NCBI RefSeq assembly: GCF_058153355.1
Contig: NZ_CM177019.1
Strand: one strand, 5' to 3'
Length of the DNA stretch: 64,000 nucleotides
In this document: piece after piece, positions 36,501 to 40,651 of the stretch
Numbering within the stretch: the stretch's first letter is position 1
Layout: the number at the start of each line of letters is the position of its first letter
Notes under the pieces: model-generated
The model's database searches: none
What the model saw: the letters and a program-made list of their open reading frames with translations, nothing else
What the model was told of the DNA's origin: nothing
Position numbers and translations under genes: made by a program

Positions 36501-37649
36501 ATGCAGGATGCAGCGCCCCGTCTGACTTTCACTTTACGAGACGAAGAGAGGTTGATGATGAAAATTGGCGTATTCGTACCTATTGGCAACAACGGCTGGC
36601 TCATTTCGACCCACGCGCCGCAGTACATGCCGACCTTTGAACTGAATAAAGCCATTGTGCAAAAAGCGGAGCACTACCATTTCGATTTCGCCCTGTCGAT
36701 GATCAAACTGCGTGGTTTTGGCGGCAAAACTGAGTTCTGGGATCACAACCTGGAGTCGTTCACTTTGATGGCGGGGCTGGCAGCCGTGACCTCACGCATT
36801 CAGATTTACGCCACTGCCGCCACCTTAACGTTACCTCCGGCAATCGTCGCCCGTATGGCCGCAACCATTGACTCCATCTCTGGCGGGCGTTTTGGCGTAA
36901 ACCTGGTGACTGGCTGGCAAAAACCCGAGTATGAGCAGATGGGCATCTGGCCTGGCGATGACTATTTTTCCCGTCGTTATGACTATCTCACCGAATATGT
37001 CCAGGTGCTGCGCGACCTGTGGGGAACGGGGAAAAGCGATTTTAAAGGCGATTTTTTCACCATGAACGATTGCCGCGTCAGTCCACAACCGAGCGTACCC
37101 ATGAAAGTGATCTGTGCCGGGCAAAGCGACGCTGGCATGGCGTTCTCCGCCCAGTATGCCGATTTCAACTTCTGTTTCGGCAAAGGCGTAAATACACCCA
37201 CGGCTTTCGCCCCGACCGCTGCGCGGATGAAACAGGCCGCAGCGCAAACCGGGCGCGACGTTGGCTCTTATGTGTTGTTTATGGTGATTGCCGACGAAAC
37301 CGACGATGCCGCTCGTGCAAAATGGGAACACTACAAAGCGGGCGCGGATGAAGAGGCGTTAAGCTGGCTAACCGAACAAAGTCAGAAAGATACCCGCTCC
37401 GGTACTGACACCAACGTCCGTCAGATGGCCGATCCCACTTCGGCGGTAAACATCAATATGGGGACGTTAGTCGGTTCTTACGCCAGTGTCGCGCGCATGT
37501 TAGATGAAGTCGCAAGCGTACCTGGTGCCGAAGGCGTGCTGTTGACCTTCGATGATTTTCTGTCGGGAATCGAAACCTTCGGTGAGCGCATTCAGCCGCT
37601 AATGCAGTGCCGCGCCCATCTCCCCGCGCTTACTCAGGAGGTCGCGTGA
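36501..37649 (+). CDS. rutA: pyrimidine monooxygenase RutA (FMN-dependent luciferase-like; alternative start at 36558)
   Basis: ORF 36468..37649; luciferase-like monooxygenase; first gene of rut operon by position. Confidence 0.85.
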
Positions 37650-38341
37650 TGAAAACCTTAACCGCTCGACCGGAAGCCATTACCTTCGATCCGCAGCAAA
37701 GTGCGCTGATCGTGGTGGATATGCAAAACGCTTATGCCACACCAGGCGGCTACTTAGATCTCGCCGGTTTTGATGTCTCAACCACTCGCCCGGTCATTGC
37801 CAACATTCAAACCGCCGTGACCGCAGCGCGAGCGGCAGGGATGTTGATCATCTGGTTTCAAAATGGCTGGGATGAACAGTATGTCGAGGCTGGCGGCCCC
37901 GGCTCACCTAATTTTCATAAATCGAACGCCCTGAAGACCATGCGTAAGCAGCCGCAGTTGCAGGGAAAATTACTGGCGAAAGGCTCATGGGATTATCAAC
38001 TGGTGGATGAGCTGGTGCCGCAGCCTGGCGATATTGTGCTGCCGAAGCCGCGCTATAGCGGTTTCTTCAATACACCGCTGGACAGCATTTTGCGCAGCCG
38101 CGGAATTCGCCACCTGATTTTCACCGGTATCGCTACCAACGTCTGCGTCGAATCGACGCTGCGCGACGGCTTTTTTCTGGAGTATTTCGGCGTGGTGCTG
38201 GAAGACGCAACCCACCAGGCGGGGCCGGAGTTTGCGCAGAAAGCCGCGTTGTTCAATATCGAAACCTTTTTTGGCTGGGTGAGCGACGTCGAAACGTTCT
38301 GCGACGCGCTTTCTCCCACGTCCTTTGCCCGTATCGCTTAA
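37649..38341 (+). CDS. rutB: isochorismatase-family ureidoacrylate amidohydrolase RutB (230 aa)
   Basis: ATG overlapping rutA stop (ATGA); isochorismatase-like sequence. Confidence 0.85.
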
Positions 38342-38352
38342 GGAGTTTAATG

Positions 38353-38739
38353 ATGCCGAAATCCGTAATTATTCCTGCTGGCAGCAGCGCACCGCTGGCC
38401 CCCTTCGTTCCCGGCACGCTGGCTGATGGCGTGGTGTATGTCTCCGGCACGCTGGCTTTTGATCAACATAATAACGTGCTGTTTGCCGATGACCCAAAGG
38501 CGCAAACCCGCCACGTTCTGGAGACCATCCGCAAGGTTATCGAGACGGCGGGTGGCACGATGGCGGACGTGACCTTCAACAGCATCTTTATTACCGACTG
38601 GAAAAATTACGCCGCGATTAACGAAATCTACGCCGAGTTTTTCCCTGATGATAAACCGGCGCGATTCTGCATTCAGTGCGGACTGGTAAAGCCTGACGCG
38701 CTGGTGGAAATCGCCACGATTGCGCATATCGCTAAGTGA
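38353..38739 (+). CDS. rutC: RidA/YjgF-family aminoacrylate deaminase RutC (128 aa)
   Basis: ORF 38350..38739; RidA-like. Confidence 0.85.
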
Positions 38740-38746
38740 GGTGGCG

Positions 38747-39559
38747 ATGAAACTTTCACTCTCACCTCCCCCTTATGCTGATGCGCCCGTAGTGGTATTG
38801 ATTTCGGGTCTTGGCGGCAGCGGCAATTACTGGTTGCCGCAACTGGCGGTGCTGGAGCAGGAGTATCAGGTAGTCTGTTACGACCAGCGCGGTACCGGAA
38901 ATAATCCAGATACGCTGGCGGAAGACTACAGTTTGGCGCAGATGGCAGAGGAACTGCATCAGGCGCTGATGAGTGTGGGGATTGAGCGTTATGCGGTGAT
39001 CGGCCATGCGCTCGGGGCGCTGGTGGGAATGCAGCTGGCGCTGGATTATCCCGCATCGGTCACTGCACTGGTCAGCGTTAACGGCTGGCTACGAATAAAC
39101 GCCCATACCCGCCGCTGTTTTCAGGTTCGCGAACGATTACTGCATAGCGGCGGCGCGCAGGCATGGGTGGAAGCGCAGCCGTTGTTCCTCTACCCCGCCG
39201 ACTGGATGGCGGCCCGCGCCCCTCGCCTTGAAGCGGAGGACGCGCTGGCACTGGCGCATTTTCAGGGCAAAAACAATTTACTGCGTCGACTTAACGCCCT
39301 CAAACGTGCTGACTTTAGTCGCCATACGGATCGCATCCGCTGCCCGGTGCAAATCATCTGCGCCAGTGATGATCTGCTGGTGCCCTCAGCCTGTTCCAGT
39401 GAACTTCATGCCGCCCTGCCCGATAGCCAGAAAATGGTGATGCGCTATGGCGGACACGCCTGCAACGTGACCGATCCCGAAACGTTTAATGCTCTGTTGC
39501 TCAACGGGCTTGCCAGCCTGTTACATCATCGTGAAGCCGCCTGTAAGGAATTGCTATGA
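38747..39559 (+). CDS. rutD: alpha/beta hydrolase RutD (start approximate)
   Basis: ORF 38720..39559; alpha/beta hydrolase motif GHALGA. Confidence 0.8.
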
Positions 39560-40146
39560 ACGAAGCCGTTAGCCCTGGTGCGCTTAGCACCCTGTTCACC
39601 GATGCCCGCACTCACAACGGCTGGCGAGAGACACCCGTCAGCGATGAGACATTACGGGAGATTTATGCCCTGATGAAATGGGGGCCGACATCAGCTAACT
39701 GTTCTCCGGCACGGATCGTGTTTATCCGCACTGCAGAAGGAAAAGAACGTCTGCGCCCGGCGCTTTCCAGCGGCAATCTGCAAAAAACCCTGACCGCGCC
39801 CGTCACCGCGATCGTCGCCTGGGACAGTGAATTTTATGAACGGTTACCACAGCTGTTTCCTCACGGCGATGCCCGCAGTTGGTTTACCTCCAGCCCACAA
39901 CTTGCCGAAGAAACAGCGTTTCGCAACAGTTCCATGCAGGCGGCCTATCTGATCGTCGCCTGCCGGGCGCTGGGGCTGGATACCGGCCCGATGTCCGGCT
40001 TTGACCGTCAACACGTGGACGACGCCTTTTTTGCGGGTAGCTCGCTGAAAAGCAACCTGCTGATTAATATCGGCTATGGCGATAGCAGCAAACTATATGC
40101 GCGTCTTCCGCGTCTGTCCTTTGAAGAGGCCTGCGGGCTGTTGTAA
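39556..40146 (+). CDS. rutE: nitroreductase-family malonic semialdehyde reductase RutE (196 aa)
   Basis: ORF 39556..40146; 4-bp overlap with rutD. Confidence 0.85.
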
Positions 40147-40156
40147 GGAGCAAACC

Positions 40157-40651
40157 ATGAACATTGTCGATCAACAAACCTTTCGCGATGCGATGTCCTG
40201 TATGGGTGCAGCAGTCAATATCATCACCACGGACGGTCCAGCCGGGCGCGCCGGGTTCACCGCCAGCGCCGTCTGCAGCGTGACCGATACGCCGCCCACA
40301 TTACTGGTGTGCCTGAATCGTGGGGCGTCCGTCTGGCCGGTATTCAATGAAAATCGGACGCTGTGTGTAAATACACTTAGCGCCGGGCAGGAGCCGCTTT
40401 CAAACCTTTTTGGCGGTAAAACGCCCATGGAACACCGCTTTGCCGCCGCCCGCTGGCAGACTGGTGTGACCGGATGCCCGCAACTGGAAGAAGCGCTGGT
40501 TTCGTTTGACTGCCGTATCAGCCAGGTGGTGAGCGTCGGCACCCACGACATTCTGTTTTGCGCCATCGAAGCGATTCATCGTCACGCCACCCCCTACGGG
40601 CTGGTGTGGTTTGATCGCAGTTATCACGCGCTGATGCGCCCTGCTTGTTAA
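40157..40651 (+). CDS. rutF: flavin reductase RutF (164 aa from Met MNIVDQQTF)
   Basis: ORF 40076..40651; flavin reductase-like. Confidence 0.85.

Follow-up and report, generated by a model that had tools for sequence, protein, structure and literature searches.

Stop and start codon overlaps in the rut operon of Escherichia coli: a conserved rutA/rutB junction and a strain-specific rutD/rutE junction

The region analysed here, within a 64-kb stretch of DNA (the window), is the standard E. coli rutABCDEFG operon. Two of its six junctions are stop/start overlaps, of 1 nt at rutA/rutB (TGATG, 37647-51) and of 4 nt at rutD/rutE (ATGA, 39556-59), and in both the Shine-Dalgarno (SD) sequence lies inside the upstream gene. 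The rutA/rutB overlap has been maintained in evolution whereas the rutD/rutE overlap has not: it is strain-specific and represents a minority variant with a single-base deletion. The layout itself is ordinary, already annotated and known, and has little import beyond correct annotation.

Identity and annotation of the operon

The seven genes, rutA-G, are co-directional and in order (Table 1). At least 80% of the segment 36400-42100 is matched in 5,417 of 5,426 E. coli genomes; the annotation under these matches is rutA-G, and the genes were also mapped one by one. Strain K-12 (b1012-b1006) has the same seven genes, the same order and all the same starts, with rutR divergent upstream and ymdF/wrbA downstream. 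It also shares the 1-nt rutA/rutB overlap and the gaps of 11, 7, 10 and 20 nt. K-12 differs from the window in its nucleotide sequence (only about 96% identity) and in rutD, which is 801 nt long and followed by a 9-nt gap to rutE; in the window, where one C is deleted, rutD is 813 nt long and overlaps rutE by 4 nt. The divergence of rutR from rutABCDEFG, and the description of the latter as an operon, are published (PMC8113886).

The gene identities and starts of the original prediction, made from the sequence alone, all match those annotated by RefSeq/PGAP in near-identical E. coli loci. They also match the RutB and RutD sequences of the crystal structures and agree with the pattern of start-codon conservation across species. 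In-frame ATGs occur at 36501 and 36555 besides the annotated rutA start at 36558. The rutB-rutC and rutC-rutD separations, predicted to be under 15 bp, are 11 nt and 7 nt.

A comparison with curated starts, suggested as a check, was run and RefSeq uses the same starts. The suggestion that curated starts removing the overlaps would refute these assignments is misleading as a test: the K-12 annotation has no rutD/rutE overlap, yet it makes the same start call and the difference lies in one base of the DNA. Comparing a strain with K-12 curated coordinates can mislead wherever the DNA itself differs.

Table 1. Features of the rut operon and its junctions in the window
Feature	Coordinates	Strand	Description
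rutR	35632-36270	-	Divergent regulator upstream of rutA; placed by offset from N96 and K-12 annotation
Sigma-54-type promoter-like site	36457..36472	+	TGGCAT-N5-TTGCT, upstream of rutA; sole TGGCAYN5TTGCW match in the 64-kb window
rutA CDS	36558..37649	+	363 aa, pyrimidine monooxygenase; PGAP rutA of 1092 nt in N96 and K-12 maps here
SD of rutB	37636..37641	+	AGGAGG, 7 nt before ATG and within the final codons of rutA (…Q E V A stop)
rutA stop/rutB start overlap	37647..37651	+	TGATG; 1 nt in common (A37649); TGA 37647-37649, ATG 37649-37651
rutB CDS	37649..38341	+	230 aa, ureidoacrylate amidohydrolase; PDB 8BKD (230 aa) aligns 1-230
rutB stop fused to SD, with spacer	38339..38352	+	TAA in TAAGGAG (38339-38345); 11-nt gap (38342-38352) to rutC ATG
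rutC CDS	38353..38739	+	128 aa, 3-aminoacrylate deaminase
rutC stop fused to SD	38737..38746	+	TGA in TGAGGTGG (38737-38744); 7-nt gap (38740-38746) to rutD ATG
rutD CDS, long allele	38747..39559	+	270 aa, ending …REAACKELL; 813 nt
1-nt deletion site and out-of-frame TAA	39540..39546	+	CC here, CCC in K-12; TAA 39544-39546; from alignments
SD of rutE	39545..39549	+	AAGGA, 6 nt before ATG; translated within rutD here; -6.1 kcal/mol
rutD stop/rutE start overlap	39556..39559	+	ATGA, 4 nt; rutE ATG 39556-58, rutD TGA 39557-59
rutE CDS	39556..40146	+	196 aa, malonic semialdehyde reductase
rutE stop fused to SD	40144..40156	+	TAA in TAAGGAG (40144-40150); 10-nt gap to rutF ATG 40157
rutF CDS	40157..40651	+	164 aa, flavin reductase
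rutG CDS	40672..42000	+	442 aa, transporter; 20-nt gap after rutF

The rutA/rutB junction

The original prediction placed a shared ATGA at 37647-37651. These coordinates are correct, and fit the five-letter sequence TGATG; the label and the 4-nt overlap that it implies are not, and the fact that the two genes share a single nucleotide was missed. The junction reads GCGTGATGAAA in the window and GCATGATGACG in K-12. The K-12 form contains ATGA, which may be the origin of the label. The duplex of the rutB AGGAGG with the anti-SD has a free energy of -11.0 kcal/mol, and the GAGGT of this SD is conserved across Enterobacterales.

Each of the nine annotated E. coli records checked has the PGAP end of rutA at the start of rutB. 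The overlap was present in 90 of 90 rut loci, from E. coli to Pseudomonas (59 TGATG, 29 TAATG and 2 ATGA), with a spacing of -1 in 88 and -4 in 2. Six loci encode a longer RutB N-terminus; tested directly, all carry TAATG or TGATG at the rutA stop. Because the overlap is found in every locus while the other junctions of the same 90 loci range from -8 to +279 nt (for example, -8 to +143 for rutB/rutC and -4 to +279 for rutC/rutD), the rutA/rutB junction is under constraint and its overlap is ancient. This invariant junction beside freely drifting neighbours illustrates, on a small scale and cleanly, how selection acts on the geometry of a junction.

This conservation exceeds chance. The number of overlaps in the operon is a separate matter. 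Among co-directional E. coli gene pairs, 707 of 2,987 lie at -8 to +6 nt (Huber et al. 2023, PMC10666635), and simple arithmetic from this proportion gives a probability of about 0.44 that two or more of six junctions fall in this class. Two short overlaps among the six rut junctions are therefore unremarkable.

We also considered GTG at 37646 as the rutB start. This codon is in the rutB frame and would create a true 4-nt overlap (GTGA, 37646-37649) with the rutA TGA; in addition, K-12 has ATG at this position. However, it lies only 4 nt from AGGAGG, compared with 7 nt for ATG 37649, and only 26 of the 90 loci have a start codon at this position (elsewhere 35 CTG, 17 GTA, 8 ATA, 2 CTA and 2 TTA), because the triplet merely joins the wobble position of the last Ala codon to TG or TA. 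Both PGAP and the crystallised 230-aa RutB begin at ATG 37649. On these grounds GTG 37646 was rejected as a highly improbable start.

The rutD/rutE junction

The 4-bp overlap predicted at 39556-39559 is indeed an ATGA, and RefSeq annotates it likewise in strains that share this sequence. What the prediction did not detect is that this overlap results from a shifted stop and not from the choice of start, and that it is absent from K-12 and from about 92% of E. coli genomes. In K-12, the rutD stop is the TAA inside the rutE SD, which leaves a 9-nt gap and a RutD of 266 aa ending in …REAAL. The deletion in the C-run moves the stop to the TGA of ATGA. PGAP has likewise annotated an 813-nt rutD in Z0117EC0005, 2017-02-2CC, MEI003 and 2014C-3338. 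The spacing in the nine annotated E. coli records is -4 in the four with the window's sequence and +9 in the five others. Among 5,426 complete E. coli genomes, 386 (approximately 7%) contain the -4 allele as an exact 36-mer, and at least 5,002 (4,118 + 884; approximately 92%) contain +9 alleles.

Because the two alleles differ by 1 nt in the length of a C-run, we also considered an error of sequencing or assembly in this short homopolymer. This explanation, to which we attach a negligible probability, is refuted by the occurrence of the exact 36-mer in 386 independent complete genomes, where RefSeq annotates an intact 813-nt rutD. The overlap in the window is real; it is a genuine allele of approximately 7% of E. 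coli genomes, and its annotation should not be 'corrected' to match K-12.

Within E. coli and between genera, the rutD/rutE spacing takes the states -16, -4, -1 and +9 to +20; in a set of 60 loci it was -4 in 26, -16 in 11 and +9 in 13. Such variation argues against strong selection for any one geometry. We are slightly inclined to regard the overlap as a neutral accident with no regulatory meaning. The deletion changes only the last residue of RutD and adds four; in this interpretation it was tolerated since translation in the new frame meets a stop, the TGA of ATGA, within only 12 nt. The rutE SD and ATG are unchanged, RutD has been reported to be dispensable in the laboratory, the -4 allele is in the minority, and genera switch among -16, -4, +9 and +11 to +20. 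Against neutrality, -4 is found more often than any other state outside E. coli (22 loci) and may thus be favoured. In addition, the sequence flanking the allele exists in at least two haplotypes (CAT and CAC), which suggests spread by recombination or recurrence.

The short gaps between the other genes

The extra ATG at 38350, which would reduce the rutB-rutC gap to 8 nt, is not conserved, and all loci examined keep ATG-CCN (Met-Pro) at the rutC start. The stop-in-SD layout of rutB/rutC recurs in other genera. At rutC/rutD, GTGAGG is invariant in 22 distinct aligned sequences with the +7 spacing. These junctions resemble the '+10 nt' class of E. coli (Huber et al. 2023), in which the SD fills the short spacer and the stop is fused to it (TAAGGAG, TGAGG): rutB/rutC is at +11, rutE/rutF at +10, K-12 rutD/rutE at +9 and, roughly, rutC/rutD at +7. 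Nothing distinguishes the rut gaps from this class.

RNA structure at the junctions

At rutA/rutB and rutD/rutE no structure masking the start was predicted beyond that found in shuffled sequences (z = +0.76 and +0.04, respectively). A hairpin was predicted at rutC/rutD in the window (about 38730-38775), where the rutD SD GAGGUGG and the AUG pair with UCACCUC in rutD codons 6-8. The 101-nt segment folds at -34.8 kcal/mol (z = -2.08, 6 of 200 shuffles), a value that must be read in the light of the six segments folded, since one at p ~0.03 would arise by chance with a probability of roughly one in six. The hairpin is weakened to about -10 kcal/mol in other E. coli alleles (GAGGCCGCG). No covariation was found in the 22 distinct +7 junctions and RNAalifold gave no consensus. 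As a conserved coupling structure it was rejected: 58.9% of cells in these junctions can pair compared with 57.7% when shuffled, a level reached by 75 of 500 shuffles.

Transcription of the operon

The rut operon is under nitrogen (Ntr) control. Of 100 shuffles, 30 contain one or more matches to TGGCAYN5TTGCW, and the argument for the site upstream of rutA is thus its position and not statistics. A sequence scan within the operon identified no promoter-like site on the + strand, and terminator-like matches there were at chance level. Lesions in K-12 rutC and rutD are polar on the downstream genes (PMC8113886); this reported polarity does not separate transcriptional from translational effects.

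Translational coupling and independent initiation

The reading that we prefer, and hold to be quite probable, is that of a standard operon with one mRNA from the sigma-54-type promoter, SDs at the ends of the preceding genes and reinitiation at rutA/rutB and rutD/rutE. All seven genes would be read from this single transcript, starting upstream of rutA, and each downstream gene would use its own SD, located in or against the end of the gene before it; the SD ahead of every start is strong. A ribosome completing rutA would stop at UGA 37647-49, directly on the rutB AUG (37649-51) and with AGGAGG 7 nt upstream. It could restart there without leaving the mRNA (termination-reinitiation), and this would tie RutB output to RutA output. 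At rutD/rutE in the window, the C deletion would lead to readthrough of the former TAA (in TAAGGA) and to termination at the TGA of ATGA, giving the same geometry as at rutA/rutB. We infer that RutB and RutE are made by reinitiation rather than by independent initiation, and that the -4 and +9 rutD/rutE alleles would differ in RutE output.

The original prediction described these junctions as typical translational coupling. For the two overlaps, termination-reinitiation is a reasonable interpretation; for the +7 to +11 gaps the description is weaker and coupling would be less certain. Native overlapping E. coli pairs were coupled in four of five cases tested, the exception being bioBF (PMC6728339), and reinitiation falls steeply with distance (PMC10666635). 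The coupled ATGA/TGATG pairs of Huber et al. (2019, 2023) differ from those of rut in having been tested with reporters; a search of the literature for coupling or ribosome profiling specific to rut found no translation experiment. The class most enriched for overlaps also differs, as it consists of subunits of one heteromeric complex and the Rut enzymes are not known as such.

The alternative, that the junctions are simply compact and that translation initiates de novo at each SD, with the overlaps reflecting gene packing, appears to us unlikely, although it has several points in its favour. Internal SDs can support de novo initiation in E. coli. A recognisable SD precedes every rut start by 5-7 nt, and neither overlap carries unusual structure that would block the 30S subunit; given a strong rutB SD that is not predicted to be buried, independent initiation would not obviously be prevented there. 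The E. coli +9 to +12 gap class has been judged more likely to initiate independently (Huber et al. 2023, PMC10666635), and the uncoupled bioBF shows that an overlap need not entail coupling. Packing, however, explains poorly why all 90 loci retain the rutA/rutB overlap when the neighbouring junctions drift by tens to hundreds of nucleotides, and coupling prevailed among the native overlapping pairs cited above.

A more speculative proposal, which we consider doubtful, is that rutD/rutE is a natural toggle and, separately, that the invariant rutA/rutB overlap reflects selection locking RutB synthesis to that of RutA. Single-base indels may flip the junction between an SD-buried stop (+9) and an ATGA overlap (-4), both in E. 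coli and between genera, and the ATGA may serve as a ready-made back-up stop. RutB may be locked to RutA so that the reactive product of RutA does not accumulate. If the two rutD/rutE alleles give different RutE:RutD ratios, they would constitute a natural, near-isogenic test of an overlap against a 9-nt gap.

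Operon content and gene models

Positions 36.4-42.1 kb of the window carry the rutABCDEFG operon, matched in 5,417 of 5,426 complete E. coli genomes, with rutR divergent upstream and ymdF and wrbA downstream. The operon, its gene boundaries and the class of its junctions are already known and annotated. Only two details have any novelty, both mildly new: a rutA/rutB overlap conserved without exception and a strain-level single-base toggle at rutD/rutE. Translated with the RefSeq gene models, all seven Rut proteins are intact. The originally assigned starts agree for all genes with those annotated by RefSeq (PGAP) in nine E. 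coli records, which have identical starts for every rut gene. Crystallised K-12 RutB (230 aa) and RutD (266 aa plus tag) also match the models; being recombinant constructs, they show that the models yield folded proteins and are not evidence for native N-termini.

By sequence alone the rutA start is ambiguous: ATGs lie in frame at 36501 (382 aa), 36555 and 36558, of which PGAP uses the last (363 aa). TTG 36468, where a mechanical ORF call begins, falls within a sigma-54-like element and, if this promoter is used, therefore cannot be a real rutA start.

Coordinates of the rut genes and neighbouring features
Feature	Position	Detail
Sigma-54-like element	36457-72	TGGCAT-N5-TTGCT
rutA	36558-37649	363 aa
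rutB	37649-38341	230 aa
Stop-SD fusion	38339-45	TAAGGAG
rutC	38353-38739	128 aa
rutC/rutD junction hairpin	38730-38775	
Stop-SD fusion	38737-44	TGAGGTGG
rutD	38747-39559	270 aa
rutE	39556-40146	196 aa
Stop-SD fusion	40144-50	TAAGGAG
rutF	40157-40651	164 aa
rutG	40672-42000	442 aa
GC-rich hairpin	42008-28	
REP-like sequence	~42060-42160	GCCGGATGCGGCG…
GC-rich hairpin	42183-203	
ymdF	42258-42434	- strand; small general stress protein

The rutA/rutB junction

rutA and rutB do meet at 37647-37651, as had been claimed, but the sequence there is TGATG, in which the TGA that ends rutA and the ATG that opens rutB have one base in common, and not ATGA. The end of rutA coincides with this rutB start in 9/9 PGAP-annotated E. 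coli records. An alternative rutB start, GTG 37646 (giving a 4-nt GTGA overlap), was rejected: its distance from the Shine-Dalgarno (SD) sequence AGGAGG at 37636-41 is only 4 nt, and it consists of no more than the wobble position of the final Ala codon followed by TG. Among 90 homologous loci, 26 have a start codon at this position.

These 90 loci comprise 80 from a RutB scan of species-representative genomes (Enterobacterales and Pseudomonas), in which RutA-G were mapped and junctions measured, together with the window and the nine annotated records. rutA and rutB overlap in all of them (59 TGATG, 29 TAATG and 2 ATGA), and GAGGT is encoded within the final rutA codons. Because neighbouring junctions of the same loci, an internal control, range widely (rutB/rutC between -8 and +143 nt, rutC/rutD between -4 and +279 nt, negative values being overlaps), the comparison shows a rutA/rutB geometry that is under constraint.

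A single-base allele at rutD/rutE

The 4-bp rutD/rutE overlap at 39556-39559 (ATGA) is exactly as predicted. PGAP annotates an 813-nt rutD with this overlap in Z0117EC0005, 2017-02-2CC, MEI003 and 2014C-3338, and an 801-nt rutD followed by a 9-nt gap in K-12 BW25113, N96, 2020CK-00188, ST131 and UTI89. This is not a curation choice, since the DNA itself differs by one base: on alignment, a C-run is one base shorter in the window than in K-12. The K-12 gene ends GCC GCC CTG TAA-GGA (…A A L stop), its stop lying in the rutE SD; that of the window ends GCC GCC TGT AAG GAA TTG CTA TGA (…A A C K E L L stop), its stop lying in the ATGA. Using short queries unable to seed across the indel, we found the window allele (CC, -4) in 386 of 5,426 complete E. 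coli genomes, the K-12 type (CCC, +9) in 4,118 and a B2 type (GCTCTG, +9) in 884. With 386 genomes carrying the same allele, sequencing error is also ruled out; the overlap is a genuine allele of about 7% of genomes.

Upstream of the deletion site the window is identical to Z0117EC0005 (-4 allele) and downstream to 2020CK-00188 (+9 allele); in MEI003 the deletion lies on another flanking haplotype. The junction is labile: of 60 loci, 26 have the -4 form (Klebsiella, Kosakonia, Phytobacter, Buttiauxella, Raoultella and others), 11 a -16 form (Erwinia/Rahnella group) and 13 the +9 form with TAAGGAG (most E. coli and the Enterobacter cloacae complex). The deletion in the window thus restores an E. 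coli lineage to the family's commonest geometry.

The rut region (37400-40300) shares only ~96% identity with most E. coli, and no more than 98.8% with any of the 5,426 complete genomes; elsewhere in the window top identity is 98.8-99.0%. Because the haplotype switches from one strain's to another's at ~39540, the locus is a recombination mosaic, of a lineage absent from this collection.

Short gaps and translational coupling

The rutB-rutC and rutC-rutD gaps, predicted to be under 15 bp, are 11 and 7 nt; rutE-rutF and rutF-rutG are separated by 10 and 20 nt. Stop codon and next-gene SD are fused at three junctions. A strong local rutC/rutD hairpin (z = -2.08), in which the rutD SD GAGGUGG and AUG are buried by pairing with an anti-SD-like UCACCUC in rutD codons 6-8, was dropped as a feature: neither conservation nor covariation was found across 22 related junctions, and it is specific to the window's E. 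coli allele.

The seven genes appear to form a single transcript. The sigma-54-like element at 36457-72 precedes rutA, no promoter-like sites were found on the + strand inside the operon, terminator-like matches are at chance level, and in K-12 lesions of rutC and rutD have polar effects on genes downstream (PMC8113886). Four of five native E. coli pairs tested with a -1/-4 overlap and an upstream SD are translationally coupled (Huber et al. 2019, PMC6728339), and reinitiation declines with distance: a spacing of +2 nt lowers it by 5-70%, one of +38 nt by 80-100% (Huber et al. 2023, PMC10666635). For these reasons we infer that termination-reinitiation, which would couple rutB translation to rutA and, in the window strain, likewise rutE to rutD, is the best-supported mechanism at the two overlaps. 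The +7 to +11 junctions fall in the '+10' class of E. coli, made up of 203 pairs spaced by +9 to +12 nt, for which independent initiation is favoured as more likely (PMC10666635). 'Typical translational coupling', originally applied to all of these junctions alike, is reasonable for the two overlaps and least secure at these gaps.

As a whole, the original prediction had its coordinates and three of four statements right, the rutA/rutB label (TGATG, 1 nt) being wrong, and its interpretation is partly supported. Two overlaps in six junctions are not unusual for E. coli, in which a spacing of -8 to +6 nt is found for ~24% of co-directional pairs (PMC10666635); at this rate the probability of at least two is ~0.44.

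Related loci and the region downstream of rutG

In 25 of the loci compared (among L038-L087; Pantoea, Serratia, Tatumella and Pseudomonas) the operon lacks rutE, rutD being followed directly by rutF; two Tatumella loci (L051, L063) have a RutE homologue ~2 kb upstream of rutA instead. RefSeq gives rutG as a frameshifted pseudogene in the UTI89 record used here (L008, 4473-5695) and rutE as frameshifted in 2014C-3338 (L009, 2644-3118), which indicates that rut genes decay occasionally in E. coli lineages. For Leclercia adecarboxylata NCTC13032 (L012), a RutA match of just 69% with a late start and a RutE match beginning ~120 nt past an intact GAAGGAGTTGCCATGA junction suggest frameshifts or pseudogenes in its rut operon.

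The two GC-rich hairpins 3' of rutG have a common arm (ACCGCCGG…CCGGCGGT) and flank the REP-like sequence. A 5.7-kb query containing this stretch gave a median of 32 matches per genome, typical of REP/BIME repeats. ymdF contains two near-identical inner segments (…CCACCTTTTTTACCTGCTTCAGATGCGC… and …CCACCTTTTTTACCTGCTTCTGATGCTC…, read on the + strand), an internal duplication.
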